The notes: generated from the letters alone by a model not told the origin. Numbered from the stretch's first letter, positions 538 through 20,411 are shown. The stretch: 24,098 bases of DNA from a virus (IMGVR_UViG_3300048796_000186:1-24098); one strand, 5' to 3'. Numbers and translations are program-made.

Positions 538-600
538 CCCCGCATCGGCGGCCGCGGCTTGAAATGTTGCGCAGTTCAACCAGTTAGACGGATTTTTTGA

Positions 601-3555: not shown

Positions 3556-3632
3556 TTTCTTTTCTTTGAGCGGCCAGGCGATCCCGGCTGCATGACCCTA
3601 ACCGCAACTCCAACCGAAAGGACTTTTCCCGT

Positions 3633-4224: not shown

Positions 4225-4249
4225 CGTGTGGACCAGAAAGGACAAGAAG

Positions 4250-4432: not shown

Positions 4433-4444
4433 CACCCCATCCAC

Positions 4445-5761
4445 ATGAAGACCGCGCAAGATACAACCACGAGTCGGGAGAGCTCCGTGACGCCCGAGCG
4501 TGTCTTGCGCGATCTTCTCGTGGAGCGCTGGCAGGTCGAGCGCCTGATTCCCTACATCCGCAATGCCAGGACGCATTCGGAGGAGCAGGTTGCGCAGGTC
4601 GCCGCCAGCATCGCCGAGTTTGGGTGGACGAATCCAATCCTCGTCGGCGCCGACGGAGTGATCATCGCGGGTCACGCGCGCCTGCTTGCCGCCCGCAAAC
4701 TCGGGATGACCGAGGTCCCGGTCATCGTCCTCGACCACCTGTCGGAAACGCAGCGCCGCGCGCTGATCATCGCTGACAATCGTCTGGCGATGAATGCCGG
4801 TTGGGACGAGGAGATGTTACGCGTCGAGCTGGAGTCGCTCCAGGTGGACGGCTTCAATCTGGACATCGTGGGCTTCAGCGACGAGGAAATTGAAGCACTG
4901 CTCCACGAGCCGGAAGAGGCTCGCGCCGGGAACACCGACGACGATGCAGTCCCGGAGACGCCGGAGACTGCGGTCACGGTCCCGGGCGATGTCTGGATAC
5001 TTGGTGAGCACCGCCTGCTCTGCGGCGATTCCACGCAGTTGGAAGCAGTGGAGAAGGTCATGGCTGGTGGCCTTGCCGACATGGTTTGGTCAGACTTGCC
5101 GTACAACGTCAATTATGGCCAGACGATGAAGGACAAGCTCCGCGGCAATAAACGTAAGATCCTCAATGACAACCTCGGCGAAGGCTTTGGGGCATTCCTG
5201 CACGAGGCTTGCAGCAACATGCTGGCCGTCACCAAGGGCGCGATCTACATCTGCATGTCCTCCTCGGAGTTGCACACGCTGCACCGCGCCTTCACAGAGG
5301 CGGGCGGGCATTGGTCGACTTTCATCATCTGGGCAAAGAACACCTTTACCATGGGCCGCGCCGACTACCAGCGTCAATTCGAGCCGATGCTCTACGGCTG
5401 GCGGGATGGCACGGATCACTTCTGGTGTGGCGCCCGCGACCAGGGTGACGTGTGGTTTGTGAAGAAGCCAGTGAAGAACGATCTGCACCCAACTATGAAG
5501 CCAGTGGAGTTGATCGAACGGGCGATCCGCAACTCCTCAAAGACGCGCGACACGGTACTCGATCCGTTCGCCGGATCCGGCTCAACGCTGATCGCCTGCG
5601 AGAAAGCCGGTAGGCAGGCACGGGTGATTGAACTGGACCCGAAGTATTGCGACGTGATCTGCCGCAGGTACTCCGCGTTCACGGGTAAAGCTATCACGCT
5701 CGAATCCGACGGCCTGACATTTGACCAGGCCGCAGAAGCCCGGGGAGCGGTTGCTGCGTGA
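4445..5761 (+). CDS. Second ParB-N fused beta-class (probably N6-adenine) DNA methyltransferase
   Basis: PYIRNARTHS...IIAGHARLLAA; motif IV variant DLPY; HPTMKPVEL; DPFAGSGST; alternative start GTG 4487. Confidence 0.92.
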   Translation: MKTAQDTTTSRESSVTPERVLRDLLVERWQVERLIPYIRNARTHSEEQVAQVAASIAEFGWTNPILVGADGVIIAGHARLLAARKLGMTEVPVIVLDHLSETQRRALIIADNRLAMNAGWDEEMLRVELESLQVDGFNLDIVGFSDEEIEALLHEPEEARAGNTDDDAVPETPETAVTVPGDVWILGEHRLLCGDSTQLEAVEKVMAGGLADMVWSDLPYNVNYGQTMKDKLRGNKRKILNDNLGEGFGAFLHEACSNMLAVTKGAIYICMSSSELHTLHRAFTEAGGHWSTFIIWAKNTFTMGRADYQRQFEPMLYGWRDGTDHFWCGARDQGDVWFVKKPVKNDLHPTMKPVELIERAIRNSSKTRDTVLDPFAGSGSTLIACEKAGRQARVIELDPKYCDVICRRYSAFTGKAITLESDGLTFDQAAEARGAVAA

Positions 5762-6294
5762 GTGGCGAGGGCATCCCAGATCTCGAACTCGGGAAGGCTG
5801 CCGAGCATTTGGTGGTGGCCGACCTGATCCTTTCTGGATACCGGGCTTATCTCACCGAACAAGGATTGCCTTACGACGTCGTGGTTGATCACGAGGGGAG
5901 CTTGTATCGGGTTCAAGTGAAGGCAAGCCGTCGCGCAAAGAGAATGCCGCAGCGCGCGATGGTAACACCAGGCTATTTGTACAACGTGCGAAGGGCCGGT
6001 AAGGCCGGCAGACGCCAGTATGCGGATGATGAGTTCGACATCGTTGCCCTGGTTGCCATGGACGTACGGATTGTCGCTTATCTGCCGTTCAAGGGGCAAA
6101 TTCTGCAGACGATCTACCTGCGTCCTCCAGGGCACGTGGGCTCGGCGCGTACGGAGCGGACACGCACGATAGACCAGTTTCCGGTTGAAGCCGCGATGGC
6201 GGCTCTTACGGGCAAGCGTCCAACACTGGCCCCCAAAACGGAGTCTGTCCGGGTTGTGGCGAGAGACCAGGGGCGCCTGTTCGAGATTGCGTGA
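5758..6294 (+). CDS. PD-(D/E)XK endonuclease, PDDEXK_5 / group I intron-associated-like
   Basis: G..AE helix, PYD, RVQVK and FDIVA motifs; GTGA-coupled to the MTase stop. Confidence 0.8.
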   Translation: MSGEGIPDLELGKAAEHLVVADLILSGYRAYLTEQGLPYDVVVDHEGSLYRVQVKASRRAKRMPQRAMVTPGYLYNVRRAGKAGRRQYADDEFDIVALVAMDVRIVAYLPFKGQILQTIYLRPPGHVGSARTERTRTIDQFPVEAAMAALTGKRPTLAPKTESVRVVARDQGRLFEIA

Positions 6295-6352
6295 CTTAGC
6301 GACCCCTGACGCTCGCCCGACTCGAACAGAGTTCACCAAACGAGGAGGATCG

Positions 6353-6517
6353 ATGCCAACCCCAGGAATCATAGTGGCCGCGATGGCGGTAGCTCTGGTG
6401 GTAATCGGAGCGCAGAAGACGGTGCATGGCGTGAAGAAGGTGGGTCACCAGATCGGATGCCTTGCGAAGACGGGCCACAATTGTCCGCCGAAGCCGCCGC
6501 CTGTAACGGCGAAGTAA
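6353..6517 (+). CDS. Small exported or membrane peptide (54 aa)
   Basis: GAGGAGG SD; hydrophobic IIVAAMAVALVVIGA, then basic region, two Cys, Pro-rich tail. Confidence 0.7.
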   Translation: MPTPGIIVAAMAVALVVIGAQKTVHGVKKVGHQIGCLAKTGHNCPPKPPPVTAK

Positions 6518-6546
6518 TAGCCGCAGCGCCGGATCTCCAACGTGAG

Positions 6547-6783
6547 ATGGCGCGCTGCCGCGCGGAGATCGCCGCTGTCGAAGCGTTGCTGCGCGGCGGT
6601 CACAAGGATCTACAGGGCCTGTGTTTGGCACTCTCGGACTGGTCCGCCGAGCTACGCCTTCTGGAGAGAGAACGTGAACGATCATTTGTTTCAGATTCTG
6701 ATCCCGGTAACCGGGCTAGTGTCGGGACTGATTGCAACCTATGTCAGCCTGCAGAATCGGGCGCTGCTCGCCGAGGTGCGTAG
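6547..6783 (+). CDS. Hypothetical helical-hairpin protein (start uncertain)
   Basis: Amphipathic RCRAEIAAVEALLRGGH...GLCLALSDWSAELRLLE; fills the gap between neighbours; 3' end overlaps the next gene. Confidence 0.55.
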   Translation: MARCRAEIAAVEALLRGGHKDLQGLCLALSDWSAELRLLERERERSFVSDSDPGNRASVGTDCNLCQPAESGAARRGA

Positions 6784-6934
6784 GGAGCTGGCCGAGTTGG
6801 AGAATCGAATCATTGCGCGGATCAACGGTACCTACGTCCGCGCTGGGGAGTGCCAACTCCGAGAACAATTAGTCCACGAAAGACTCGCCGCCATCGCGGA
6901 GGAGCTGAAGAACAACAAAGCCGCCGGCGATTAG
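6674..6934 (+). CDS. Single-TM plus coiled-coil protein (86 aa)
   Basis: GGAGAG SD before GTG 6674; LFQILIPVTGLVSGLIATYVSL followed by a heptad-like helix. Confidence 0.7.
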   Translation: MNDHLFQILIPVTGLVSGLIATYVSLQNRALLAEVRRELAELENRIIARINGTYVRAGECQLREQLVHERLAAIAEELKNNKAAGD

Positions 6935-6950
6935 ACCGGCGGCGCGTTTC
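6920..6950. terminator. Hairpin between convergent genes, possibly a bidirectional terminator
   Basis: GCCGCCGG (6920-6927) / CCGGCGGC (6936-6943); A-rich before, short TTT after. Confidence 0.5.
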
Positions 6951-6962
6951 AGTGCGGGGCTG

Positions 6963-7514
6963 TTACAGCGCAACCCGGTAAGCGCGCACTCCATCGGGGC
7001 GTTTGAAGGATTCGACGGTGAGGCCCATCTTCTTTCCGAGGCTGCCCGAGATGAAGCCGCGGACGCTATGCGCCTGCCAGTCCGTAGCGGACATGATGTC
7101 AGCGAGCGTAGCGCCGTCCGGGCGCTTCAGCAGGTCGAGGACGATGGCCTTCTTGCTGCCGTCGCGCGCCGTGGGCGTCGCGTCCTTGACGGTGGCCGCC
7201 TTGGTCGCCTTGGCCTTCTTCGGCGCAACCGGGGCGGCCTGTGGCGCGGGGGTTGGCGTCAGGGCGTGGATGGCCTTCCAGATGCGCGCGACCGCCGTCT
7301 TGCGGTCGGTGAACTTCTTGACCGGCTTCAGCTCGCCAAAGGGCGGCGCGCCGGCGAAGGCGTTCCAGACTTCGACGAACCGCGTGATGGGCCAGTCGGC
7401 GGAGAGCTTGGCGAACTCCTTTTCGCTGGTGAAACGGTCTTGGCCTTCTGAAATCTGCTCGGCGGCGGCGAAGGCTGTGATGTTGTTGTCGGTGTCGATG
7501 GTGAAAGTCGTCAT
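6963..7514 (-). CDS. DUF3489 domain (winged-helix-like) protein
   Basis: GSKKAIVLDLLKRPDGATLADIMSATDWQAHSVRGFISG signature; AGGAG SD. Confidence 0.9.
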   Translation of the reverse strand: MTTFTIDTDNNITAFAAAEQISEGQDRFTSEKEFAKLSADWPITRFVEVWNAFAGAPPFGELKPVKKFTDRKTAVARIWKAIHALTPTPAPQAAPVAPKKAKATKAATVKDATPTARDGSKKAIVLDLLKRPDGATLADIMSATDWQAHSVRGFISGSLGKKMGLTVESFKRPDGVRAYRVAL

Positions 7515-7528
7515 GGTGGTCTCCTGTT

Positions 7529-8038
7529 TCAGAACTCGATCTCGTCGGCGATGCGGCGCGCCTCGTCGTCAGTGAGGCGTTTCAGGCCTCCCTGCTTGAT
7601 CCATGCGTCAACGGCATCCTGGACAGCGTTCCAGAAGCCCGTCTCGTTGTTGTCGAAGGGACGCTCAAACGCCCCACCGTAGCCGTTGGCGTCCGTGTAG
7701 TCGTGCAGTTCGCTGAAGGAGGCGCAAGTGCTGGGGACGGTTCCAGAGGCGACATCCGCGAGGATCTCGGCCTTGGCCCGTTCCACAACGCGGCGCAGTT
7801 CGTCGGCGCTGAAGTCCGGCAAGCGCGGGTTGCGAGGTTTTTCGATGCGCGCTTCTCCAGCCGGTTTCACCTCCGAGCGGAGGCGGGCGGCTGTGCGGAT
7901 GCGGATCTCGCGGCCGGTGGCGAGGTTGGTTCCGTACCATCCGCCGCGCGGGTGTTCGCGCGTGATGCGAACCTTGGCCAGCGTGCCGCTGACCTTCACG
8001 ATGTAGGTCGTGCCGATTTGTACGTTGTGTTTTTGCAT
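7529..8038 (-). CDS. Hypothetical prophage protein (beta-rich N-domain plus acidic C-domain)
   Basis: GGAG SD; co-directional with neighbours; GGWYGTNLATGREIRIRTAARLR segment. Confidence 0.75.
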   Translation of the reverse strand: MQKHNVQIGTTYIVKVSGTLAKVRITREHPRGGWYGTNLATGREIRIRTAARLRSEVKPAGEARIEKPRNPRLPDFSADELRRVVERAKAEILADVASGTVPSTCASFSELHDYTDANGYGGAFERPFDNNETGFWNAVQDAVDAWIKQGGLKRLTDDEARRIADEIEF

Positions 8039-8040
8039 GT

Positions 8041-8286
8041 TCAGTACTCCAGTTCTTTCTGGTCCACCGCGCTGCGGTCGCCCAGGCTGGCGAGGACGTA
8101 GGCCAGTTCTTCGGTGACGCGGCCGAGGTCGCCAGCATACCCCCAGTTGGCGGGTTCCTGAGTCTGGTCCTTCTGGTGTTGCTCCAGGCAGCTGGCGATG
8201 CGCTTAAGTATTTCCTGGCACTCGGCGTGGCGTTCGGCGTAGCAGGCGGCGGCGGTTTGTTTGGTGGTCTTGGTGGTGCGTGGCAT
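8041..8286 (-). CDS. Small hypothetical prophage protein with NWGYAGDL motif
   Basis: Helical protein of the type seen upstream of DUF3489 genes; ATG at 8286 lacks an SD. Confidence 0.75.
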   Translation of the reverse strand: MPRTTKTTKQTAAACYAERHAECQEILKRIASCLEQHQKDQTQEPANWGYAGDLGRVTEELAYVLASLGDRSAVDQKELEY

Positions 8287-8336
8287 CGAACACATACATC
8301 ACTTCAGTCGCGACGAATAGCAACTCTGAAGTTCGA
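8287..8336 (-). promoter_or_regulatory. Divergent control region with a putative leftward promoter and inverted repeat
   Basis: Minus-strand TTGCTA (-35-like) followed by GAAGTGATGTATGT just upstream of ATG; ACTTCAG (8301-8307) / CTGAAGT (8326-8332). Confidence 0.4.
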
Positions 8337-8368
8337 CTTTTCCAAAGAAAGATTCACTAGGCGAACGT

Positions 8369-8905
8369 ATGGCGATGATGGGCATTTCTCTTCGGGCGTA
8401 CGCGCGGATGCGCGGGTGCAGTCTGCCCGCCGTGCAGAAAGCCATCGCCAGCAAGCGCATCACGACGCTACCTGACGGGAGCATCGACCCGGAGCGTGCC
8501 AACCAGGAATGGGCCAGGAACACCTTCGCCGGCCAGACGGTCAATCGAACAGCGGCCGCAGCACCGAAGGAACGGGTTTCCCCGATGCCGGAACCGCCGA
8601 CAGCAACGGGCGATCCGGTTGCTCAATACCTGCGTGCCCGAGCGGTCAAAACGAGCTTCGAGGCGCGCACGGCGCAGTTGGAATATGAGGAGCGCGCCGG
8701 CAAGCTGATCCAGGCGGTGCGCGCATCGGAGTATGCCGCGAGTTTCTCGGCCATCGTGAAAGACCACCTCCAGGCGCGCGCCGACCGTTTGGCACCCATG
8801 CTGGCCGCCGTCAACGACGAGAAAGCCATCCATCGGCTATTGAAAAACGATGATGAGGCCGTGCTGCGCAAGGTGAGCAAAGCGATTGCGGACGCAGGTT
8901 TGTAA
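8369..8905 (+). CDS. Terminase small subunit (Nu1-like)
   Basis: N-terminal HTH SLRAYARMRGCSLPAVQKAI, coiled coil ending in GKLI; immediately upstream of TerL. Confidence 0.85.
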   Translation: MAMMGISLRAYARMRGCSLPAVQKAIASKRITTLPDGSIDPERANQEWARNTFAGQTVNRTAAAAPKERVSPMPEPPTATGDPVAQYLRARAVKTSFEARTAQLEYEERAGKLIQAVRASEYAASFSAIVKDHLQARADRLAPMLAAVNDEKAIHRLLKNDDEAVLRKVSKAIADAGL

Positions 8906-8907
8906 GC

Positions 8908-10800
8908 ATGCAGCCGTTTTCCATACACGAAGTCGGAGCCGCGGCCATGTTGCCGCCGCGCGACATTACCGTTTCGCAGTGGGCGGATGAGAACCGCGTG
9001 CTGACCGGCGGCGCGGCGGCCGAGCGGGGCCAGTGGTGCACGCGGCCTTATCAGCGGGAGCCGATGGATGTGCTCAGTCCCAGTCATCCCTGCCGCCAGG
9101 TCGTGGTGCTGTCGGGAGCCCAGATCCTCAAGACGGAAGTGCTTCTCAACTTCATCGGCTTCATCGCCGATGTGGATCCTGGGCCGGTGCTGGTGGTCGA
9201 GCCGCGCACCGAGGATGCCAAGGCACTGTCGAAGGATCGCGTCGCGCCCATGTTCCGCGCCACGCCCGCGCTGCGCGGGAAGATCGCGCCCGTCAAGTCG
9301 CGCGATTCGAGCAACACGACGCTGCACAAGGTTCTGGCAAACGGCGCAGGGCAAATCACGCTGACCGGGGCGATCTCACCCTCGGGGCTGGCCATGCGGC
9401 CGATCCGGTATGCACTCCTGGATGAGGTGGACCGTTACCCGGCCAGCGCGGGTACGGAGGGCGACCCAGTGTCGCTGGCCATCCAGCGCACCGCGGAGTT
9501 CGCCCACAACAAGAAGATCGTGATGGCGTCCACGCCGACGATCAAGGGCGTCAGCCGCATCGAGTTGGCGTGGCGGGAGAGCGACCAGCGCGATTACTTC
9601 GTGCCCTGCCCACAGTGCGGGTGCTTCCAGGTGCTCGCGTTCGGCGATGGCACGGGGCCGGGCGTGGTGTGGCCGGAGGGGAAGCCCGAAGACGCTGCCT
9701 ATCGCTGCGCCGAGTGCCGCGAGCTGATTCCTCACCGATTGAAAGCCGAGATGGTGGAGCGCGGCGAGTACCGCGCGGCGAACCCGTCCTCGCCGATTCC
9801 CGGCTTTCGCGTCTCGCAGTTGATTTCGCCAAAGAAGTCCTGGGGCGAGATCGCGGTGGAGTTCCTGGCTGCGAAGAAGTCGCCGGAGACGCTCAAAGCA
9901 TTCCTGAACACGGTGCTCGCTGAGTTGTGGGAGGAGACCCACGAGGTAGCAACGGATGCCCACGCATTGTGGAACCGCTGCGAGCCTTTCGAAGCCGAAG
10001 CGCCGGACGGGGTGGCGCTGATCACGGCAGGCGTCGACGTGCAGGCGGATCGCCTGGAGATGGAAATCGCTGGATGGGGACGCGATGAGGAATCCTGGTC
10101 GATTGCCTATCACGTAATTCCTGGCGATGCGACCCGCAACGAGGTCTGGGAGCACTTGGAAGGCCTGCTGCTCTCCGAGTACCTGCACGCATCCGGGCTC
10201 CCGATGCGGATCGTCGCGACGTGCATCGACTGCGGGTTCAAAGATGCCACCGTACTGCATTTCACGCGTGACCGCTACAACCGGCGTGTCTATGCCACTA
10301 AGGGACGCGCGGGCGAGTCGCCGATCTGGCCGCGCAAGCCGAGCCGGAAGAACCAGACGCCGTTCTTCATGATCGGCGTGGATGCGGCGAAGACGGCGAT
10401 CTACGACCGGCTGAAGCTCCGGGATGTGGGGCCGGGGTATTGTCACTTTCCGATCGGGCGGGACCTCGAGTACTTCGAGCAGTTGACCGCCGAGAGAAAG
10501 TTCACCCGGTACCACAACGGGTTTCCGAAGCAGGAATGGCGGAAGCCGGCCAACGCCCGCAACGAAGGCTTGGACGCGCGGGTCCTCGCATACGCGGCGT
10601 TGCACGCGCTGTACGCGAGCGGTTTGAAACTGCCGGTGCATTGTGACCGCTTCGCGCGGATGGTGCAGACGCGCCGAGGGGAGACTCCGTCCGTTCCGGT
10701 GGTGACGAAGCCGGCCAACACCAACCGCCCCGCCCAACCTCCCACCGAACGCGGCGAAGACCCATGGATACCGCGCCGCAACTGGTTTGGAAGAAGTTGA
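8908..10800 (+). CDS. Terminase large subunit, lambda GpA family
   Basis: TRPYQREPMD, Walker A variant SGAQILKTE, Walker B LLDEVDRY, STPT, CPQC...CAEC, nuclease AGVDVQ and NEGLD. Confidence 0.97.
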   Translation: MQPFSIHEVGAAAMLPPRDITVSQWADENRVLTGGAAAERGQWCTRPYQREPMDVLSPSHPCRQVVVLSGAQILKTEVLLNFIGFIADVDPGPVLVVEPRTEDAKALSKDRVAPMFRATPALRGKIAPVKSRDSSNTTLHKVLANGAGQITLTGAISPSGLAMRPIRYALLDEVDRYPASAGTEGDPVSLAIQRTAEFAHNKKIVMASTPTIKGVSRIELAWRESDQRDYFVPCPQCGCFQVLAFGDGTGPGVVWPEGKPEDAAYRCAECRELIPHRLKAEMVERGEYRAANPSSPIPGFRVSQLISPKKSWGEIAVEFLAAKKSPETLKAFLNTVLAELWEETHEVATDAHALWNRCEPFEAEAPDGVALITAGVDVQADRLEMEIAGWGRDEESWSIAYHVIPGDATRNEVWEHLEGLLLSEYLHASGLPMRIVATCIDCGFKDATVLHFTRDRYNRRVYATKGRAGESPIWPRKPSRKNQTPFFMIGVDAAKTAIYDRLKLRDVGPGYCHFPIGRDLEYFEQLTAERKFTRYHNGFPKQEWRKPANARNEGLDARVLAYAALHALYASGLKLPVHCDRFARMVQTRRGETPSVPVVTKPANTNRPAQPPTERGEDPWIPRRNWFGRS

Positions 10801-10801
10801 T

Positions 10802-11056
10802 ATGGCACTGACCGTTCAGCAGTTGCAGGCGAACCTGGACGCGGTCACCCAGGCCATCGGAAGCCCCACGCTCAAGGTCCGTTTCCCGGATGGGCGCGAG
10901 GTAACTTACCGCTCGACGGACGAGCTTCTGAAGGCGAAGGCCGCCATCGAAGAGGATATCCGGAAGACCAGCGGGCAGACCGGAAGCCGCGTCCGGTTCG
11001 CGCAGCACCAGCGCGGCGATGGTTCCACGGGCCCAACGCTGGACGACCGCTGGTAA
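10802..11056 (+). CDS. Head-tail joining protein, gpW-like
   Basis: Lies between TerL and portal; VRFPDGREVTYRSTDEL motif. Confidence 0.85.
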   Translation: MALTVQQLQANLDAVTQAIGSPTLKVRFPDGREVTYRSTDELLKAKAAIEEDIRKTSGQTGSRVRFAQHQRGDGSTGPTLDDRW

Positions 11057-11060
11057 CGAA

Positions 11061-12749
11061 ATGAATCTCCTCGACAAGGCCATCAGCATCGTGGCGCCGC
11101 GCGTCGCGTTGCAGCGTGTGCGCAGTCGCGTGGCACTCGAATTGACCACGGGCTATCTGGAACGCCACGCGCAGCGGTTCCGCTACGAAGGCGCCACCGC
11201 TGGCCGCCGCGCCCACGGTTGGTACGCCGCATCGACGGACGCCAACGTCGAGTTGATGGGATCGCTCATCTGGCTCCGCAACCGCAGCCGCGATCTCATC
11301 CGCAACAATCCGTATGCCGCGCGCGCGGTAGAGGAACTGGCCGGCAATGTGGTCGGGACCGGGATCGTGCCGAAGGCCAAGACCGGCAACACGACCATTG
11401 ACAAGATCATCGATGCCGAGTGGCCGTTCTTCGCCGACGGCTGCGACACGCCGCAGCGCCTCGATTTCTATGGCATGCAGACGCTGACCGTTCGCACGAT
11501 GGCGGAATCGGGAGAAGCCATTGTCCGTTTCCGGCCGCGACCTGCGGACGCCGGCCTGCGTATTCCGCTTCAGCTTCAGATGCTCGAAGCCGATTTCCTC
11601 GATCAGGCCCGCACGATGGGCCTGGTCAACGGCCATGTGATGGAGGGCGTGCAGTTCGACGAGATGGGACGCCGCGTCGCGTACTGGCTGTTCAGTTACC
11701 ACCCCGGCGGTGTGTTGATCCTCAACCCGCGCGGCGGCATTGTCAGCCAGCCCGTGCCAGCCGACCAGATCATGCACGTTTACCGCGTGCTGCGGCCCGG
11801 CCAGGTTCGCGGCGTACCGTGGCTCGCGCCGGTGATGATGGCGCTCCGCGATCTTGACGACTACTGCGACGCGGAGCGGGTCCGTAAAAAGGTGGAAGCC
11901 TGTGTTACGGCGTTCGTCCAGCAACCGGAAGGCGTCGATGGCGATCCACTCGGCATCGCGGGAACCGATCCTTCCAGTGGGCTCCCGGTCGAGAGCTTCC
12001 AGCCGGGCATGGTTGAGTATCTGAAGCCCGGCCAGGACATCAAGTTCAACAATCCGCCGCCGGCGGGCGGGTACCGCGAATACAAGATGACCGAGTTGCA
12101 GGGGATCATGGCCGGCATCGGCTTGCCTTACGAGCTCGGCACGGGCGACATGTCGCAGGTGAATTACTCCTCCTGGCGCGGCGGGATGCTCGGCTTCCGC
12201 AACACGGTGGAGGCTTTCCGTTGGCTCACCCTGATCCCGCTATTCGCGATGCCTGTGTGGCGGCGGTTCATCGACACGCTGATTCTGCAGGGCAAGATTC
12301 CGAAATCCGCCGCCAACGATCCGAAGATCGGATTGCGCAGTGTGCAGTGGACCGCGCCACGGTTCGAATCGGTCGATCCGGTGAAGGACGCGGAGGGCGT
12401 GTTGAAGGATGTCCGCATGGGACGCAAGACCTGGTTCGAGGCGGTGCTGGAGAACGGTTACGACCCTCCCACCCAGCTTCAGCAGATTGCACTGTTTAAC
12501 AAGCTGGTGGACAAATTCGAAATCATCCTGGATTCGGACCCACGCAACACGACGCTGCGCGGCCAGGAGCAGCCGGCGGCAACGGAGGAGCGGACGCCGA
12601 GTAGCAAAGCGGCTCCCACCAAGGCCAAGGGCCAGGGTTTCGCGGCGCTCTCGGAAGAGGACCTGGGCATGGTCAAGGATCTACTCGTCGCCGGCATGTC
12701 GCGCGCAGGCAGCGGTTTCGAATCGGCCCCACGGCTCTACCGCGGTTAA
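11061..12749 (+). CDS. Portal protein, lambda family
   Basis: YEGA, LRNRSRDLIRNNPYA, RPGQVRGVPWLAP, GDMSQVNYSS, VDPVKD motifs. Confidence 0.96.
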   Translation: MNLLDKAISIVAPRVALQRVRSRVALELTTGYLERHAQRFRYEGATAGRRAHGWYAASTDANVELMGSLIWLRNRSRDLIRNNPYAARAVEELAGNVVGTGIVPKAKTGNTTIDKIIDAEWPFFADGCDTPQRLDFYGMQTLTVRTMAESGEAIVRFRPRPADAGLRIPLQLQMLEADFLDQARTMGLVNGHVMEGVQFDEMGRRVAYWLFSYHPGGVLILNPRGGIVSQPVPADQIMHVYRVLRPGQVRGVPWLAPVMMALRDLDDYCDAERVRKKVEACVTAFVQQPEGVDGDPLGIAGTDPSSGLPVESFQPGMVEYLKPGQDIKFNNPPPAGGYREYKMTELQGIMAGIGLPYELGTGDMSQVNYSSWRGGMLGFRNTVEAFRWLTLIPLFAMPVWRRFIDTLILQGKIPKSAANDPKIGLRSVQWTAPRFESVDPVKDAEGVLKDVRMGRKTWFEAVLENGYDPPTQLQQIALFNKLVDKFEIILDSDPRNTTLRGQEQPAATEERTPSSKAAPTKAKGQGFAALSEEDLGMVKDLLVAGMSRAGSGFESAPRLYRG

Positions 12750-12775
12750 AGACTCAACCACAAGGGAGGACGCTT

Positions 12776-13264
12776 ATGAAAGGGAACCCACAGGTAATCG
12801 CTGGGCTTCAGGAAGCGGCCAACATGGAAGGCTCCATGATGCTTCAGTATCTTCTCGACCAGCGCGACGTAAAGCGCCTGGGCCTGGATCTGGCCGACGG
12901 CCTAAAGCAGATGAAGGAGCAGTGCGAGGATCACATGAAATGCCTGGTGAGCCGCGTCCTGTTCCTCGAGGGCGCGCCCACGATTGAGTTGAAGCCCGCC
13001 GCGACTCACGATAGCGTCACCGAGATTCTGAACGATGCTTTTGCTGCCGAGCAGGCTGCCACCGCGCGGTTCACCGATCTCTGCAAACAGTGCTACGACG
13101 CCGGCGACATGTCGAACTTCCACTTCTACCAGCACCTGGTGAAGTGGCATCGCGAGGGCGACGACAAGTTCAAAGGCCATGTCGCGTGGCTGCAGAAGCA
13201 ACTCTACCAGTTGAAGAAGCTGGGAGAAAACGACTACATCGCCGTCAGCGCGGTGAAGGATTAG
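12776..13264 (+). CDS. Bacterioferritin-like (ferritin superfamily) protein, degenerate active site
   Basis: MKG start, E18, QY25, RVLFLEG.P, E92, GHVAWL and LG..Y align by eye along the full length of E. coli Bfr; GGGAGG SD. Confidence 0.85.
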   Translation: MKGNPQVIAGLQEAANMEGSMMLQYLLDQRDVKRLGLDLADGLKQMKEQCEDHMKCLVSRVLFLEGAPTIELKPAATHDSVTEILNDAFAAEQAATARFTDLCKQCYDAGDMSNFHFYQHLVKWHREGDDKFKGHVAWLQKQLYQLKKLGENDYIAVSAVKD

Positions 13265-13272
13265 GAGGCACG

Positions 13273-15516
13273 ATGCCGCTTCTACGAACCGAAATATCCC
13301 CTGCGGGTACCGGCGCGCCGCCGCCCGCGCGGGCTGACGCCGAAATCTTGTCAGCCGACGCCCAGGTGCTGCCGAGCACCGCCAACGCCAAGGACGGCAC
13401 CATCGATGTGGTCTGGTACAGCGGGGCCGCCGTCCCGAGGGTTGACCGCGCGACTGGTGAACCCTACATGCTCCAGCTCGACATGGAGGGCTGCCGCTTC
13501 GACCGGCTGAACAACGGCGCGCCGGTGTTCGATACCCATTTCACCGGCGACGATTTCAAGTCCCTCATGGCGGGCAAGGTCGGCACGCGGGCCCAGTTGG
13601 GCGTGGTGCGCCGCGCCTGGCCCAACGGCGATAAGGGCATGGCCACGCTGCAGTTCGATCTGGGCGATCCCGATGGCGCCGAAATGTTCCGTAAGGCCAG
13701 CACCGGCATCCTGCAAAACCTCAGCTTCGGAACCTTCGTGTACAAACGCGAAAAGGTGGATGCGCAGGCCGAGGGGATGCCAGAGGGCAAGCCGCCCTAC
13801 CTGAACGACAAGGAAATCGGCATGTTCAAGGCCACCGACTGGGAGCCGTTCGAGATTTCGCCTTGCACGGTGCCGGCCGATTTCAACACCTGCTTTCTGA
13901 GCGCACAACCGAACGATTCAGTACGGGCAATCAGCCCACAAAAGGAGAAACCTGCAATGGAACAGACGACCACGCAGGACACGGGCGCGGATGCCCGTAC
14001 TGTGAACGAACAGGCCCTGGCAGCCGCGCGGGAAGAGGCGGTCCAGGCCGAACGGGAGCGCGTCAGCGAAATCCAAACGCTGGGCGCGACCGCAATCAAA
14101 TACGGGATCGACGAGACCGTCATCAGCGAATTCATCGCCAAGGGCGTACCCGTCGATCAGGCACGGAAGGAACTGTTTGCCCATCTCGCGACCAAGGGCC
14201 AGCAGGGTGTGCCGCCGCGCGCGGGCGCAGACGGCCCGGCGTTCCCGATTCGCGGGGAGGGCGGCACGTCGGTGACCCGCGACGGCATGGAGCAGCGCCT
14301 TGCCTGCATGCAGATGGCTCTGTTGCTGCGCGCGGACGGGCGGTTCTTTCTGGCGCGGCGCCGGGACCATAACGGCAACGAAACCGGGGAATATCTCGAT
14401 GGCTACGGTCCCGAGCAGCAGCGGCGCGCCGTCGAGATGGCCCGCGAGTACCGCAATTTCAAGCTCATCGACATGGCGAAGGAAGCCCTGGAGTTGCGCG
14501 GCACCAACCCGCGCGGGATGGATGTGACGCGGATTGCGGAGATGGCTCTCCAGGGATCCTCGCGGGGACGGGAGTTCTTCGCGGGCGGCGCCGAATCGAC
14601 CGCGGACTTCCCGGCGATCCTGGCCAACGTCGCGAACAAGACCTTGCGCCAGGGCTACGAAGCCTATCCGCGCACGTTCCAGCCCTTCTGCCGGCAGGTG
14701 ACGGCGCAGGACTTCAAGCCCATCAACCGGGTGATGCTCGCCGATGCGCCCGTCTTGCAGGCGCTGAATGAGAAGGGGGAGTACCACCGCGCCAACCTGA
14801 CCGACAACAACATCAATTACGCGCTCGGCACGTACGGCGAGATCGTGGCACTGACGCGCAAGGTCATCATCAATGACGACCTGCAGGCGTTCACCCGTGT
14901 CCCGGCGCTGCTCGGCGTGGCCGCGGCGCAACTCGAATCGAACACCGTCTGGGGCATCATCACGTCGAATCCGGCGGCGGTGTACGCGGGCGACAAGAAC
15001 TCCACCGCGCTGTTCCACGCCAATCACAGCAACTTGCTGACCGGCGTGGCCAGCGCCATCGATTCCACCGTTGCCAACTCTGCTCCGCTGACCGCGCTGG
15101 GCAAGGGGCGCGGCGCCATGCGCCTTCAGAAGGGACCTCAGGGTACTCCGCTGAACCTCATTCCGCGGTTCATTGCCGTGCCGACCGCGCTGGAGACTTA
15201 CATGCTCCAGCTCGTATACCCGATCAACATTGCTTCGGCGGATGCGACGAAGGTCGTGCCGGAGTGGGTGCGCAGCCTGATTCCGGTGGTCGAACCGCGT
15301 CTCGATGCCGCCACGAATGGGACCACCGGCTGGTATCTGATCGCCGACCCGGCACAGATCGACACCGTGGAGTACTGCTACCTGGAAGGGCAGCAGGGCG
15401 TGTACATCGAAACCAAACAGGGCTTCGAAGTGGATGGCGTCGAGATCAAGGCGCGCATGGATTTCGGCGCGGCTGCTCTCGACTATCGCGGGCTTCAGAA
15501 GAACGCCGGCCAGTAG
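13273..15516 (+). CDS. Prohead protease - scaffold - major capsid fusion (HK97 fold)
   Basis: AGGAGG SD; protease motifs VFDTH, NLSFG, WEPFEIS..VPAD; capsid motifs STADFPAILANVANK, TYG...TRKVIINDDL. Confidence 0.93.
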   Translation: MPLLRTEISPAGTGAPPPARADAEILSADAQVLPSTANAKDGTIDVVWYSGAAVPRVDRATGEPYMLQLDMEGCRFDRLNNGAPVFDTHFTGDDFKSLMAGKVGTRAQLGVVRRAWPNGDKGMATLQFDLGDPDGAEMFRKASTGILQNLSFGTFVYKREKVDAQAEGMPEGKPPYLNDKEIGMFKATDWEPFEISPCTVPADFNTCFLSAQPNDSVRAISPQKEKPAMEQTTTQDTGADARTVNEQALAAAREEAVQAERERVSEIQTLGATAIKYGIDETVISEFIAKGVPVDQARKELFAHLATKGQQGVPPRAGADGPAFPIRGEGGTSVTRDGMEQRLACMQMALLLRADGRFFLARRRDHNGNETGEYLDGYGPEQQRRAVEMAREYRNFKLIDMAKEALELRGTNPRGMDVTRIAEMALQGSSRGREFFAGGAESTADFPAILANVANKTLRQGYEAYPRTFQPFCRQVTAQDFKPINRVMLADAPVLQALNEKGEYHRANLTDNNINYALGTYGEIVALTRKVIINDDLQAFTRVPALLGVAAAQLESNTVWGIITSNPAAVYAGDKNSTALFHANHSNLLTGVASAIDSTVANSAPLTALGKGRGAMRLQKGPQGTPLNLIPRFIAVPTALETYMLQLVYPINIASADATKVVPEWVRSLIPVVEPRLDAATNGTTGWYLIADPAQIDTVEYCYLEGQQGVYIETKQGFEVDGVEIKARMDFGAAALDYRGLQKNAGQ

Positions 15517-15550
15517 GGCGCGGCGGGCATAAGGAACAGGAGAAAAACCG

Positions 15551-16345
15551 ATGCAGAATTACGTTCAAAAAGGTCAAACCCTCACGGTGGTCGCGCCCTA
15601 CGCGCTGCTCAGCGGCGGCGGTTGCCAGGTCGGCAACATCTTCGGCGTGACGGTCAACAGTCAGAACATAGGCGACTCGAGCGAGTTGGTGGTGGAGGGC
15701 GTGTTCGATCTGGCCAAGGATGCGAGCACGTTCAACCCCGGAGACAAAGTCTTCTGGAACAACACCGCCCTGCAGGCCACGTCCAGCCCGCTGACGGCGG
15801 CCGGCGTCTCGAACAAGGAGATCGGCTACGCGGTGCTCAGCCAGGCGAGCGGCGTGAATGCGCCGGGCGGCCTGACTGGCGATGCGACCGTTCGCGTGCG
15901 GCTCAATCCGCTCGGCTTCGGTCCGGTGCAGGCGGCGGACACCGACCCGTCGCTGATTCAGAAAACCGTGGTGACGCTCACTGCCGCGCAGATCATGGCC
16001 ATGTTCGGAGCGGCGGTCAGCATCTTGCCGGCACCTGCGGCCGGACAGGTACTCGTTGTTGACCAGTTCATCGTGCAGATGAAGCCCGGCGCCACGCAGT
16101 TCACGGGCGGCGGGGCGGTGTCGTTCCAGTATCACGGGACCGGCGTGGTGCCGCACTCGTCCACCATCCCTGCGGCTACCATCACCAGCGCGGCCGCGAG
16201 CGAGAACGTCGTACCGCCGCCCACTGGCGTCATCCAGCCGCCATCGGCGACCGGCATCGACATCGTCAACGCCACGGGCGCTTTCGCCACTGGCAACGGC
16301 ACGATGGTCGTGACCGTGTTCTACTCGATCATCACGCTCAACTAA
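15551..16345 (+). CDS. DUF2190-family capsid cement/decoration protein with an extra C-terminal beta domain
   Basis: MQNYVQKGQTL...EGVFDLAK...TVRVRLN typical of DUF2190, followed by about 145 extra residues; AGGAG SD. Confidence 0.8.
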   Translation: MQNYVQKGQTLTVVAPYALLSGGGCQVGNIFGVTVNSQNIGDSSELVVEGVFDLAKDASTFNPGDKVFWNNTALQATSSPLTAAGVSNKEIGYAVLSQASGVNAPGGLTGDATVRVRLNPLGFGPVQAADTDPSLIQKTVVTLTAAQIMAMFGAAVSILPAPAAGQVLVVDQFIVQMKPGATQFTGGGAVSFQYHGTGVVPHSSTIPAATITSAAASENVVPPPTGVIQPPSATGIDIVNATGAFATGNGTMVVTVFYSIITLN

Positions 16346-16375
16346 GGGTGGCCGCCGCGCCGCGCATCATTATAT

Positions 16376-16717
16376 ATGTCCGACTGGCCCACCATCGACG
16401 CGGCGGCGAACGCGGTCATGCTGAAGACGTTCGGCGAGCCGATGGTGTATCAATCCGCACAGGCTGGCGTGGCGGTTGGCAATCCGGTGACCATCACCGC
16501 CATCCGCCACGCACGTGTGCGCGAAGAGTCCGGCGCACTGGCGAACGTCGAAGAAATCTCCGTCAATCCATCCGACATTGCGAACTTCCCCCAGCGCGGT
16601 GATTGGGTGACCGCCTGGGGATCGCAGTTCGTGGTGACCACCGTGCGCCAGCCGGACCCGTACGGCCTGGTCGAGCTTTCGCTGATGGCGCGGGCCGGGC
16701 AGAACCCCAATGACTAA
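16376..16717 (+). CDS. Head-tail joining (head closure, FII-like) protein
   Basis: Position, size, FGEP..Y and P.RGD.V motifs. Confidence 0.7.
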   Translation: MSDWPTIDAAANAVMLKTFGEPMVYQSAQAGVAVGNPVTITAIRHARVREESGALANVEEISVNPSDIANFPQRGDWVTAWGSQFVVTTVRQPDPYGLVELSLMARAGQNPND

Positions 16718-17207
16718 CCCGAAAACGATTCTGGCCGAGTGGGTGGCGGCGCTCCAGGCTCTGCCGAACCTGGTGGATGCCCTGGGCGGGGATGCCAGTT
16801 ACATCCAGTTCTACACCGAGAACGCCGTCGTCTTCGGCCAGCCCACGCAGAACAACATCCGGCTGGCGATCCTTTCGATGCCGCCCGGTTCGATCATGAT
16901 TGCCTGGCAGGGCACTGGGCCCGGCAGACTTGGCAATGCGCTCGTATTTGTGCATGATTTCTCGTTGTACTTGCGCGCGCCGGAAGAGGCCGATGTCGGC
17001 TACGAGGATCTCTTCAACTGGATCGTGAACGACGTGCCGGCGGGCAGCAGCCTGCGGATGCTGCACACCCAAGTCGATCCGAACTGCGAGCCGATGGACT
17101 TCTACCTGCCGTCGGCGCGCCGCAACACCGTCGTGATCAGCCCGGACGGAGCCACTTTCGAGTACTTCGAGGTGCCGGTTCGGCTGATCGAGTCCTATAA
17201 CCCGTAG
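16710..17207 (+). CDS. Putative tail terminator or neck protein
   Basis: Overlaps the previous stop; upstream of the tail tube gene; function inferred from position. Confidence 0.55.
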   Translation: MTNPKTILAEWVAALQALPNLVDALGGDASYIQFYTENAVVFGQPTQNNIRLAILSMPPGSIMIAWQGTGPGRLGNALVFVHDFSLYLRAPEEADVGYEDLFNWIVNDVPAGSSLRMLHTQVDPNCEPMDFYLPSARRNTVVISPDGATFEYFEVPVRLIESYNP

Positions 17208-17227
17208 TTGTCCGAGAGGAAAAAACA

Positions 17228-17398
17228 ATGGCGGAAATGGTATTTCTTCGATCGCCTCAAGGCGATGAGATCAAGGAAGTCGAGGCGACTGCGGAAAAAC
17301 TCTCACCGTGGATGTCCTCTGGATGGCATCAGGTTCCGGCGCCGACGGCGGCGCAGAAGCCAGCAGGTGAGATTGAGGAGGAAAAGCTGCATGGCTAA
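17228..17398 (+). CDS. Small protein (56 aa, MAEMVFLRSPQGDEIKEVEA...), absent from the ORF track
   Basis: GAGAGGA SD; stop TAA 17396-17398 overlaps the tail tube start. Confidence 0.7.
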   Translation: MAEMVFLRSPQGDEIKEVEATAEKLSPWMSSGWHQVPAPTAAQKPAGEIEEEKLHG

Positions 17399-18419
17399 CA
17401 TCAGTGAATTGCTGAACGGTTGGGGATTCGGCAAACAGACTGCCATTGGAACGGCCAACTTGGTGGCGACCATCTGGCGTCACACGAATCTCAATACCAA
17501 ACCCTGGGCGAAGGTCCCCGTGAACGAGGATGACCGGGCGGAAATCGGCAAAGGCCACGAGTTCCCAACGCAGCTCTTCAAGTCGCATTACAACATGCCG
17601 GCCTACGAGCTCTCGAAGTACGCCTCGTCGGAGTTCCTCGCGTGGGCGCTGTCCTTCTCTATGGGCAACGTTGTCGTGAGCGGTAGCGGTCCGTACGTTT
17701 ACACCATCGTTCCGGCCCTGGGAGCGACGAACCCGACCGGCCTGGAGCTGCCCTACTTCTCGTTCCTGCAACAGATCCGGCCCGGTGGGTCGGCGGTGTT
17801 GGACGAAATGCTGGTGGGCTGCGCGGTCAAGGGCTGGAAGCTCTCCATCAAGAACTCTCCAGGCCGCGCCAGTGCGATGTGCGCGGTGGAGTGCGTCACC
17901 ACCGGCCAGTACACTTCGCCAAGCGGCATCACGCTGCCGGCCATCTCCACGCCGCATGAATTCAATGCTGGCATGATCAGCGCTCTGACGTTCAACGGCA
18001 TCAACTATCTTGCCGGCGGCAGCGCCAAGCAGTTCGTGTCGATGGAAGCTTCCTGGGAAAACAACTTCCGGCCCGGCTTCTTCCCTGGCTCGGGAGCTCA
18101 GGATGGCTACCAGATCCAGGGGCGTTTCGAGTGGGGTGATCGGGCTTTCGCGGTGCAGTTTGTAGTGCGTGTGCAGGCGGGGTCGACCGAGTACGCAAAC
18201 CTGATCAACCTGACCACTGGGACGGCGACGTTCACCATGACCCGCGACGCCAACAACTCCTTCACGATGCTCATCCAGAAGATGGGCTTCAACGTCGCCG
18301 AACTCGGGAACACGGATGGCATCGTGACGCTCCAGATCACCGGTGTACAACTCTACGACCCCACCAACGGGATGGTCACGATGACCGTCACCACGCCGCT
18401 ACAGGGCATCTGCCAATAG
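17391..18419 (+). CDS. Major tail (tube) protein
   Basis: GAGGAGG SD before ATG 17391; 342 aa rich in Gly/Thr/beta strands; upstream of chaperones and tape measure. Confidence 0.75.
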   Translation: MANISELLNGWGFGKQTAIGTANLVATIWRHTNLNTKPWAKVPVNEDDRAEIGKGHEFPTQLFKSHYNMPAYELSKYASSEFLAWALSFSMGNVVVSGSGPYVYTIVPALGATNPTGLELPYFSFLQQIRPGGSAVLDEMLVGCAVKGWKLSIKNSPGRASAMCAVECVTTGQYTSPSGITLPAISTPHEFNAGMISALTFNGINYLAGGSAKQFVSMEASWENNFRPGFFPGSGAQDGYQIQGRFEWGDRAFAVQFVVRVQAGSTEYANLINLTTGTATFTMTRDANNSFTMLIQKMGFNVAELGNTDGIVTLQITGVQLYDPTNGMVTMTVTTPLQGICQ

Positions 18420-18428
18420 GAGGCTGAA

Positions 18429-19016
18429 ATGTTTGATGCGAGCAAACCCTTTGTGGTGCCGATCCTTTCGGGCGGCGAGAAGACCTGCGAGGTGCGGTTC
18501 CCCTCGGACGAAGAGTGGTGCGCCTGGGCTCGTGCGCAGCGCACCGTGCGCCATTTCCTGGGGCGGGGAAAATCGCAGAGCGAGGACGTGGACCTACCAA
18601 AGATCAACGCCGAACTTTTCGGCAAGATCCGCACCGACAAGGACGGTCCTGCCTTCGATGACGCCGAGGCCGGCATGGTGATCGGCCGCATTGAGCGGTG
18701 CGCCGTGGCCACCGTGGAACGCGAAGGGATCAACTACCGGACCGAAATGAAGGTCCCCGGCACGCGCGTGGTTCACGTGCTCCGCATGCCGACCGCGAAG
18801 GAGATGCAGGACCACGAGCGTGCTTCAACCAGCGTGGTCGCAGCGCGGCGCTCCATCGAGACGCGCGCGTTCCTGGAACCGAGCGGCGCCCTCTACGATA
18901 AGCTGCACATCTCGCACGACGGCTATGCTGCAGCCGTGCCGATCGTTCACAAGTCGGCGGCTGTGTCCGAGGTCATCGCCCAACTTGCCATCGAGGCTGA
19001 CGAAGACCCGGAATAG
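18429..19016 (+). CDS. Tail assembly chaperone (gpG-like)
   Basis: AGGAGG SD; follows the tail tube gene; ends in CCCGGAA-TAG. Confidence 0.7.
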   Translation: MFDASKPFVVPILSGGEKTCEVRFPSDEEWCAWARAQRTVRHFLGRGKSQSEDVDLPKINAELFGKIRTDKDGPAFDDAEAGMVIGRIERCAVATVEREGINYRTEMKVPGTRVVHVLRMPTAKEMQDHERASTSVVAARRSIETRAFLEPSGALYDKLHISHDGYAAAVPIVHKSAAVSEVIAQLAIEADEDPE

Positions 19017-19438
19017 CCGCGCCCGGCGACTGGCCGGAAGAGCCGGGCGTGCGATTCCTGATCCGGTCGGTGCTGCACCAGGGCGGGTTGTGTGGGCCTG
19101 ACGAAGAGTGTCCCGACCGCATCTTTCGTTGTCGGCGGTGCGGATATTCCGCGCAGACGGAATTGGATGGCTGCCCCGCCTGCAGTGCGGACTGGAAGGC
19201 CATCGACGTCAGCCACGGGCCCGACTGCCCGAAGAACCTGCTCGAAGAGGCGATGGATACACCGAATGGCGCTCTCGTTCGACGGTGCTTCCGCATTCTG
19301 AATGCGAAGAACATCGGGTTGACGATCACGCTGGCCGACATCACGGAAGAGGAGTTTAGGGTGCTGGAGTTCATCGAAGCTGAGCGTCAGGAGCAGGTCG
19401 GACATGGGGATGGCGGCCACAGGAAGACACTGTACTGA
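19001..19438 (+). CDS. Tail chaperone -1 frameshift extension (gpT-like) with a Cys4 ribbon; alternative own start GTG 19049
   Basis: The -1 frame is open from 19001 and overlaps the upstream stop; contains CRRCGY-x8-CPAC. Confidence 0.65.
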   Translation, partial: RRPGIAAPGDWPEEPGVRFLIRSVLHQGGLCGPDEECPDRIFRCRRCGYSAQTELDGCPACSADWKAIDVSHGPDCPKNLLEEAMDTPNGALVRRCFRILNAKNIGLTITLADITEEEFRVLEFIEAERQEQVGHGDGGHRKTLY

Positions 19439-19441
19439 GTA

Positions 19442-20248
19442 CTATTCGAGCCCCAGTTCTCTCCTGAGCTGGTCTGCCTGTTCTTCGCCGTCGGTCCACG
19501 GAACCATCTGGGCGTATCGCATCCGGATCTTAACCTTCGGGTCGTGCTTGTTGAGCTTAAACTCGTCGATAATCGCCGTCATGAGCGCCATGTAGGACTT
19601 TACCGCGATGGTGAAAGCGATTCCCGCCATAAGCTCGAACGACTCTTTCTGCAGATCTGCGAATCCTGTAAGCCCGGAATGGATGTACCAACTCAGGCGT
19701 GGATATTCCACGGCGTAGATCTCGTTGAAAGGCTGACCCAGCTTTTCCACGCGTTTCTGCAGCTTGAGCAGTGACCAATGCTGGACGTCGGGTCGGTTGG
19801 GCCATAGGGAATCACGCAATGCAGTAATGCGGGCACCTTCCAGTCTGATGAACTCCTGAAAAGTTGTCGCATCCACCTGGGCGTCTGGATTCGCGGCTTT
19901 GAAATCGATTATTGCTTGCGCTGAGCGCATTTTCTCCACGTCGATCAGGGCAAGCATCTTTTCCGGCCCCTGCGGAACTTCATCAATCACCGCGACATCG
20001 ACGGCAATTTCGAAAAGACCCCGCGCGGCAGATGCGATTCCTTGAACGTGCTTTACGTGGTTGAGCGCGAGTATGGACTCAACGTTGGCGAATGCTCGGT
20101 AGTAGTTGGCAGTAAAACATATCTCCCGCTGTGGTGGATTTAGAAGGCCTCGAATGATATTGCGGATTTCGAGCTTGTCGAAATTGTTCAGGCTCGTCAG
20201 GGTCGAAAAGAATCTTGCTGGTTCTTCGCGCAAGTTCTGAGATGACAT
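19442..20248 (-). CDS. Moron gene, DUF5677/HEPN-like all-helical protein
   Basis: Opposite strand inside the tail operon; visibly more AT-rich; ARGLFE and YPRLSWYIHS (R-x5-H) motifs; GAGGT SD before ATG 20248. Confidence 0.7.
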   Translation of the reverse strand: MSSQNLREEPARFFSTLTSLNNFDKLEIRNIIRGLLNPPQREICFTANYYRAFANVESILALNHVKHVQGIASAARGLFEIAVDVAVIDEVPQGPEKMLALIDVEKMRSAQAIIDFKAANPDAQVDATTFQEFIRLEGARITALRDSLWPNRPDVQHWSLLKLQKRVEKLGQPFNEIYAVEYPRLSWYIHSGLTGFADLQKESFELMAGIAFTIAVKSYMALMTAIIDEFKLNKHDPKVKIRMRYAQMVPWTDGEEQADQLRRELGLE

Positions 20249-20411
20249 CGCGGACCTCAATCTCTCATCCTACGCTTCTTGTTCCCGAGGTACGTTGCGC
20301 AGACGCTGGTCGTTTCGAAAGACCGACCAGTTATGCCAATCTCGGCGAACTGACCCGCGAATCGAGGTCGCATCGTGCGGCCTGTTGCGCAAGATCCTGC
20401 CGAAGGCAATC

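Follow-up and report, generated by a model that had tools for sequence, protein, structure and literature searches.

A putative phage accessory protein of bacterioferritin fold with a predicted rewired metal center, encoded between the portal and capsid genes

In a virus record of 24,098 bases with an estimated completeness of about 51% (the whole of this stretch is called the window below), we have identified a gene whose product appears, judging from its sequence and predicted structure, to be a phage-encoded accessory protein of the ferritin superfamily. It would belong to a clade derived from bacterioferritin (Bfr), carry a rewired metal center and occupy the slot between the portal and capsid genes. 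The gene, carried by a group of acidobacterial phages, is a lineage-specific insertion that has been selectively retained in many lineages and lost in others. An earlier note on this DNA had described a degenerate Bfr that is hard-wired into the phage head operon. Its interpretation stands as far as the fold, the substitutions, the operon integration and the synteny of loci found through the gene are concerned, whereas the idea of a required head component does not.

The open reading frame that had been taken for a Bfr-like gene was confirmed to the nucleotide (Table 1), and so was its tight integration, on the same strand, into the head operon. The portal gene ends with a TAA at 12749, 26 nt before the ATG of the ferritin-like gene, which itself ends with a TAG at 13264, leaving 8 nt to the ATG of the protease-capsid gene at 13273. 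The Shine-Dalgarno sequences of both genes are readily read, a purine-rich one is found at the equivalent place in the related loci inspected, and the close spacing recurs in related loci as well. Between positions 10500 and 16500 we detected neither a sigma-70-like promoter, a consensus that may not suit Acidobacteria, nor a terminator-like site adjoining the ferritin-like gene, in agreement with the claim that it has no such signals of its own. A codon style matching that of the head genes was upheld for GC3 (0.80 versus 0.81-0.86 in the neighboring head genes) but not for overall GC content (0.58 versus 0.64-0.65). Co-transcription with the head genes late in infection is likely. Four metatranscriptome runs yielded contigs 90-99% like this stretch, one of which, of 1006 nt, joins the 3' end of the portal gene, the whole ferritin-like gene and the 5' end of the capsid gene. 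Since contigs from the RNA libraries likewise cover all of positions 1-20000, the methyltransferase genes included (DNA carry-over is possible), they say nothing specific about the ferritin-like gene.

Table 1. Features of the window, with positions counted from its first base.
Feature	Position	Strand	Basis
C-5 cytosine methyltransferase	693-1994		
ParB_N + N6/N4 methyltransferase fusions (two)	1954-3555 and 4445-5761		
PD-(D/E)XK endonuclease-family protein	5758-6294		
Large terminase, gpA type	8908..10800	+	Pfam GpA_ATPase 254.6 bits, GpA_nuclease 292.1 bits
Small ORF in the position of lambda gpW (head-tail joining)	10787..11056	+	Assigned by position only
Portal protein, lambda family	11019..12749	+	Pfam Phage_portal_2 350.5 bits
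Shine-Dalgarno GGGAGG of the ferritin-like gene, 6 nt 5' of the ATG	12764..12769	+	Sequence
Bacterioferritin-fold protein, 162 aa, phage-type clade	12776..13264	+	ORF call, Pfam, NCBIfam, PDB matches, AlphaFold2, alignments, tree
Shine-Dalgarno GGAGG of the protease-capsid gene, overlapping the ferritin-like stop codon	13264..13268	+	Sequence
Prohead protease / linker / HK97-type major capsid fusion, 747 aa	13273..15516	+	phrog_4523, Pfam
Head decoration (cement) protein	15551..16345	+	Pfam Phage_cement_2 57.6 bits; phrog_122 head decoration
Head-tail attachment protein	16376..16717	+	Pfam Phage_attach 38.4 bits

Within the head module, the protease-capsid fusion matches phrog_4523 ('major head and protease protein', E = 1e-166), and its residues 422-744 match Phage_capsid_4 of Pfam with 178.1 bits. 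The small ORF in the gpW position has no Pfam match; it is conserved in related loci according to tblastn, and the gene in this position of phage RcOceanus is annotated as 'lambda gpW like'. The true start of the portal protein may be the Met of MNLLD at about 11061; the portal of a second lineage (L098, see below) aligns from residue 15 of the window's portal. A run of DNA-modification genes (693-6294) lies 5' of the packaging module, and the tail region comprises several large ORFs without a family match as well as a DUF5677 gene (19442-20260, minus strand).

Searches with the ferritin-like protein lead to the ferritin superfamily throughout. Pfam Ferritin (PF00210) matches residues 8-137 with 45.5 bits against a cut-off of 24.5 (E = 9.4e-12), and the NCBIfam model bfr (TIGR00754) matches from end to end, but with only 42.1 bits, below the equivalog cut-off of 125.55. 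The NCBIfam matches are confined to bfr and non-heme ferritin, and 44 out of 44 matches of a PDB sequence search are bacterioferritins or ferritins (best E = 1.2e-9), Dps thus not being the closest sequence family. PHROGs offered no real family for the protein (best E = 0.0085). An AlphaFold2 model built with 22 family sequences (pLDDT 94.6, pTM 0.88) predicts helices at residues 5-34, 39-63, 81-108 and 112-127/135-149 and a short fifth helix at 151-158, which is the four-helix bundle with short C-terminal helix expected of a Bfr; helix D is broken by a small hairpin at residues 128-134. Foldseek against the PDB returned bacterioferritins throughout (TM 0.83-0.92), the E. coli protein and subunits from hetero-oligomeric Bfrs among them. 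The proposal of a Bfr-like four-helix ferritin fold is thus borne out by PF00210, the AlphaFold2 model and Foldseek.

Residue equivalences were taken from HMMER, BLASTP and 136-sequence MAFFT alignments, and both the retained and the replaced positions listed in the earlier note hold in them. The protein keeps the equivalents of Bfr E18, Y25, H54 (H53 in the phage protein), E94 (E92) and H130 (H135). C50 occupies the position of the bridging E51, its own E51 that of the heme ligand Met52, and W124-H125 those of D126-E127, after which a net insertion of seven residues (loop 128-134) lies in helix D. The full set of six di-iron ferroxidase ligands (E18, E51, H54, E94, E127 and H130) is therefore not present. 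At the Met52-equivalent position, 100 unique family sequences have 76 E, 17 Q, 3 K and not a single Met, so that the axial heme ligand is absent. The same 100 sequences conserve E18 (98), Y25 (99), C50 (94), H53 (97), E92 (100), H116 (99), H120 (99), H125 (100), E127 (97), D129 (98) and H135 (99), numbered as in the phage protein. Clade-wide, Bfr E51 is replaced by C, S or A, E127 by an invariant His and M52 by E or Q, and position 54 is H, Y, F or W; the site signature is [C/S/A]-x-[H/Y/F/W] / E / W-H-H in the phage type versus E-M-H / E / D-E-H in canonical Bfr.

The word degenerate thus fits the replacement of E51, Met52 and E127, but the replaced positions are themselves conserved across the family, and the metal center therefore appears to be remodeled rather than decayed. 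Canonical ferroxidase and heme functions seem unlikely given the lost bridging carboxylates and Met52, and with ferroxidase chemistry of the canonical kind thus improbable, a role in iron storage is not assured. The pI of the family is acidic (median 5.66), as is usual for ferritins.

The family forms a clade of its own. When 1.84 billion representatives were searched exhaustively, only 156 proteins reached E <= 0.001, with 35 at <= 1e-10 and four at <= 1e-30. They make up a graded series of relatives with 35-49% identity that share the motif FHxxQHLxKWH...GH(I/V)xWL and in which the loop varies in length or is absent. A near-length search gave 64 homolog clusters, mostly unnamed or labeled 'bacterioferritin', the family proper spanning 49-98% identity. 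No match was obtained by tblastn of the protein against 50,697 deposited phage records. In a quick maximum-likelihood tree of 131 rows (LG+C20+F+G4 by PMSF, SH-aLRT support only, midpoint root), whose rows are the sequences that phmmer reached from this query rather than all Bfr diversity, all 35 phage-type sequences and ten variants form one 45-row clade. The branch that separates it has an SH-aLRT support of 97, and all 76 canonical Bfrs, 20 of them from acidobacterial genomes, lie on its opposite side. The phage protein is thus not nested within host Bfr clades.

The host whose genome harbors a prophage copy has a canonical Bfr of its own, with intact motifs and 31% identity to the phage protein, as well as Dps-like and other ferritin-like genes. 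Among 401 acidobacterial genomes only this prophage copy (in G001) scores high, with 189.9 bits; the next matches score 104 bits or less, as canonical Bfrs do. One of the 401, G155, is flagged as unpublished and supplies a single row with a canonical-range score, on which nothing here depends. A recent capture from the host is ruled out by the 31% identity together with the separate clade. As a side observation, a protein of 3179 aa (P0106) contains 34 stretches that match query residues 52-125 (E = 6.3e-10, 21% identity); it may be a giant protein in which paired ferritin-like helices are repeated, or else an artifact of helical repeats.

Searches anchored on the ferritin-like gene provided 80 loci, on six genome contigs (Bryobacterales, Bryobacteraceae, Terriglobia or Acidobacteria metagenome-assembled genomes, MAGs) and 74 viral contigs. 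The occurrence of one copy within a 1.05-Mb contig indicates that the phage is temperate. The synteny survey that had been suggested found the portal upstream and the protease-capsid gene downstream in 74 of the 80; five further loci are cut by contig ends and one (L005) is a remnant. Of 78 complete copies, 71 have an upstream gap of 12-37 nt and 72 a gap of 5-21 nt to the capsid gene, the outliers being explained by frameshifted neighbors or by the choice of alignment piece, with the exception of L048. In that locus an ORF of 239 aa on the minus strand (4746-5465), with a signal-peptide-like start, lies between the portal and ferritin-like genes, from which it follows that this junction accepts other inserted genes.

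Counting the window, ORFs are complete in 78 of 81 copies, the rest being two cut by contig ends and one remnant. The complete copies include L004 (6001-6483, equal to G001:C7:1029879-1030352), the prophage copy in the 1.05-Mb Terriglobia MAG contig. Its codon 49 reads TAG in frame, through a nonsense mutation or else an error of sequencing; its neighbors look intact. L005 (5148-6643, from an acidobacterial MAG) retains a gpW-like piece, residues 47-162 of the ferritin-like protein and about 90 capsid codons, has no portal gene and looks like a decayed prophage. Purifying selection on the ferritin-like gene is strong: the median pairwise Nei-Gojobori dN/dS is 0.112 (1380 pairs from 55 unique sequences), against 0.076 for the portal gene. 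Selection is thus not relaxed, and dN/dS and intactness rule out a decaying pseudogene, save for single copies such as L004 and L005.

The slot is also occupied outside the immediate relatives of the window. In a second lineage (L098 and five further loci) the order is likewise terminase, portal, ferritin-like gene, capsid, decoration; portal and capsid are 67 and 60% identical to those of the window, while the ferritin-like protein is only 36% identical and has no loop. A metagenome contig (L135) with a portal of 73% identity again has the slot occupied. It was the only phage-type locus among the 80 from the P0087 metagenome scan; the other 79 gave no tblastn match to the head proteins of the window, and in 47 of the 80 the second site shows the motif [DEQS]ExxH, which is of canonical type. 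No usable viral-contig loci were found for P0068, P0072, P0067, P0076 and P0089, and no P0088 loci in the metagenome collection. All phage-type members with a visible context lie in the portal-capsid slot, about 30 distant representatives being without context. Two longer proteins, P0065 and P0066, were considered as portal-ferritin and ferritin-capsid fusions and rejected, as both are frameshifted read-throughs with out-of-frame stretches; such read-throughs could mislead surveys of domain architecture.

Because these loci had been found through the ferritin-like gene itself, we added a portal-anchored search, in which the best 80 of 207 relatives were classed by the portal-to-capsid gap and by the family HMM applied to that gap. 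Among these best 80 of 207, 37 carry the gene, 32 do not, eight are too short and three are unclear. The gap of the gene-less loci is 160 nt or less, mostly 52-73 nt, and they include a 22-tip clade whose portal is about 80% identical to that of the window. A FastTree portal tree of 60 unique sequences (midpoint root) for the same best 80 of 207 requires at least five changes between presence and absence and places carriers on the deepest branches. Two gene-less loci, L257 and L265, have portals 92% and capsids 87-88% identical to those of the window and are nested in its own carrier clade with supports of 0.93-0.995, and absence there reads as secondary loss. Their junction is clean: the capsid gene starts about 30 nt past the portal stop and encodes a different short N-terminus. 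L217, L249 and L252 have gaps of 260-435 nt that the ferritin family HMM does not match; a small gene of another kind may lie there, or the capsid N-terminus may be divergent (MNKKKLKELAGELD...).

Among cultured phages the capsid fusion has relatives in 124 records, all below 60% identity. In the three inspected, Rhodobacter phage RcOceanus, Pseudomonas phage LPPA33 and Bordetella phage PBb001, the capsid fusion directly follows or overlaps the portal gene and the ferritin-like gene is absent. The gene is thus not present wherever the cognate capsid protein is, and the gene-less close relatives together with the cultured ones show it to be dispensable for head assembly. Hard-wired is therefore an apt word for the order found in the loci recovered through the gene itself, but not for the portal relatives. 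Sporadic occurrence, which had been named as a point against the original interpretation, applies in part, given the 37 carriers and 32 gene-less loci among the best 80 of 207 and the repeated gains or losses.

The starts of the capsid fusion were compared as well (L213-L284 and window positions 13273-13345). In most carriers the fusion begins with MPLLRTE, after which comes a leader of about 17 aa rich in Pro; gene-less relatives have short leaders such as MKANQALEFF or MSESPQYD, and the L098-type capsid has a different extension of about 120 aa. The difference may reflect simple linkage at the junction or be a hint of coupling.

In this study, we tentatively propose that the protein is an optional metal-binding protective protein, dealing with iron, another metal or peroxide during DNA replication and packaging, a role that seems to us possible though short of probable. 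The Bfr fold, the Glu/His/Cys/Tyr core, the acidic pI, the selection, the operon signals and the dispensability together point to a condition-dependent late accessory protein. It would be made along with the head genes, late in infection, and would assemble in the manner of Bfr as a dimer or cage. Iron or another metal would be bound, without heme, at the remodeled intrasubunit site, and metal or peroxide chemistry could thereby be buffered while DNA replicates and is packaged, a Dps-like form of protection. The advantage would depend on conditions, which may be why the gene is conserved yet dispensable; iron or redox stress in the habitat can be invoked here only as conjecture. The position of the gene counts against an accessory role, because some phages encode minor head proteins between portal and capsid (SPP1 gp7, Mu gpF), and so do the ferritin-like proteins detected in phage G particles and in a Vi01-like phage (see below). 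Dps-like ferritin-superfamily genes of Lactobacillus phages and of 'Gratiaviridae' have been read as protection against oxidative stress (PMC6669764, PMC8008677).

Alternatively, the protein could be an optional internal cargo associated with the virion or procapsid, held by the interior or linker of the capsid fusion or by the portal, and thus a phage analog of ferritin-loaded encapsulins. We consider this unlikely, although the position of the gene directly 5' of an HK97-type capsid gene and 3' of the portal gene speaks for it: family 1 encapsulin operons have the cargo gene immediately upstream of the HK97-type shell gene. The slot has moreover been kept at 67% portal and 60% capsid identity while its occupant diverged to 36%. 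Particle proteomics of phage G has detected ferritin-like proteins, as has mass spectrometry of a Vi01-like phage preparation (PMC12484599, PMC10892097), and a 2025 preprint puts forward the hypothesis that procapsids might bear cargo-like proteins (10.1101/2025.06.18.659913). Weak ferritin/Dps-like fold matches in BFVD 'prohead protease' proteins (E 0.07-0.3) point in the same direction. Those proteins come from uncultured Caudovirales (A0A6J7XDU5, A0A6J7WIS1 and A0A6J7WPK9, of 333, 432 and 763 aa), and long BFVD 'Dps' proteins of 290-679 aa give equally weak matches (E 0.07-0.3); a fusion of ferritin-like domains to head proteins could lie behind them, or helical scaffold regions that match by chance.

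Several observations weigh against cargo. Relative to Bfr there is no N- or C-terminal extension to serve as a targeting peptide, the alignments ending in helix E, and neither of the two longer proteins is a genuine fusion to portal or capsid, both being frameshift artifacts. Close relatives with near-identical head proteins do without the gene, and the capsid leader, which differs between carriers and non-carriers, varies among carriers too, as fits simple linkage. The fuller version, in which a ferritin-fold cargo would be loaded into procapsids or virions, its remodeled Cys/His metal center would be active in or on the capsid, and the system would represent a living intermediate between phage heads and ferritin-loaded encapsulins, is slightly more doubtful.

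It is rather improbable that the protein acts as a heme-less and ferroxidase-altered subunit that enters the 24-mers of host Bfr and changes iron storage or release. Such co-assembly would be served by the predicted whole-length Bfr fold with retained helix E and by the canonical Bfr in the host genome checked, and natural hetero-oligomeric Bfr and Bfr-Ftn cages with specialized subunits are among the structural matches (9h1u, 9iig, 9bts). Its identity to the host Bfr is only 31%, however, its own conserved polar core and clade-specific loop suggest a separate function instead of mere interference, and the two phage subclades differ greatly, with 36% identity to each other, in contrast to the host Bfrs, whose uniformity in the tree is far greater. 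Finally, a scaffold or chaperone of head assembly using the four-helix bundle as a structural module only, in line with its place in the head module and with a distance to the capsid gene short enough to suggest translational coupling, is very improbable, since a gene not required in the head argues against a repurposed scaffold (three cultured relatives and 32 of the best 80 of 207 portal relatives encode heads without it), the capsid fusion already contains a protease and linker region, and the conserved Glu/His/Cys/Tyr core goes beyond the needs of a pure scaffold.

As far as is known, the ferritin superfamily is otherwise represented in phages only by scattered Dps-like genes that have not been characterized. 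What we describe is a coherent, seemingly Bfr-derived clade that has so far been seen only in one phage head-gene slot, with a metal center that appears systematically rewired, the heme ligand and the two bridging glutamates having given way to residues that are themselves conserved. It provides a putative new ferritin-fold metal site for characterization, and natural pairs of phages with and without the gene permit a direct comparison. In addition, it makes concretely testable a question from the literature on encapsulin origin, namely whether enzyme-like cargo is ever carried by phage procapsids. If true, the cargo alternative would be of high interest: a genome-packaging HK97 capsid would then have a natural cargo of ferritin fold.

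Full-text searches of a limited literature collection did not turn up any account of a bacterioferritin-like gene located between those for portal and capsid. The known phage Dps- or ferritin-like proteins (Lactobacillus phages such as Semele, 'Gratiaviridae', Bacillus phage G gp346, Vi01-like gp217) likewise belong to the ferritin superfamily. They are of Dps type or of uncertain type, are encoded near DNA-metabolism or tail genes in the cases compared, and in none of these cases lie between portal and capsid; in BFVD they are weak structural neighbors of the window protein, with 9-18% identity. Bfr itself (TIGR00754; PDB 1bcf, 4am2, 8sqr) has in common with the window protein the length class, the four-helix bundle with short fifth helix (TM 0.83-0.92) and the E18, Y25, E94 and H130 equivalents. 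The phage clade differs by the replacement of Met52 (E/Q), E51 (C/S/A) and E127 (His), and the window protein by the seven-residue net insertion whose loop 128-134 interrupts helix D, by being phage-borne in a separate clade and by its 42 bits against the cut-off of 125.55. Hetero-oligomeric Bfrs (9h1u, 9iig, 9bts) contain Bfr-fold subunits without heme binding or ferroxidase activity, and chain M of 9h1u is among the best structural matches (TM 0.92). They are, however, the products of paired chromosomal genes of one cell, whereas here a single gene of a head operon has no adjacent partner. Family 1 encapsulin operons share with the window a ferritin-superfamily gene directly 5' of the gene for an HK97-fold shell. 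The terminal targeting-peptide extension of encapsulin cargo is absent from the window protein, as judged from the alignments. The encapsulin shell stands alone without packaging genes, whereas the ferritin-like gene described here is flanked by those for terminase, portal, protease, decoration and head-tail attachment.
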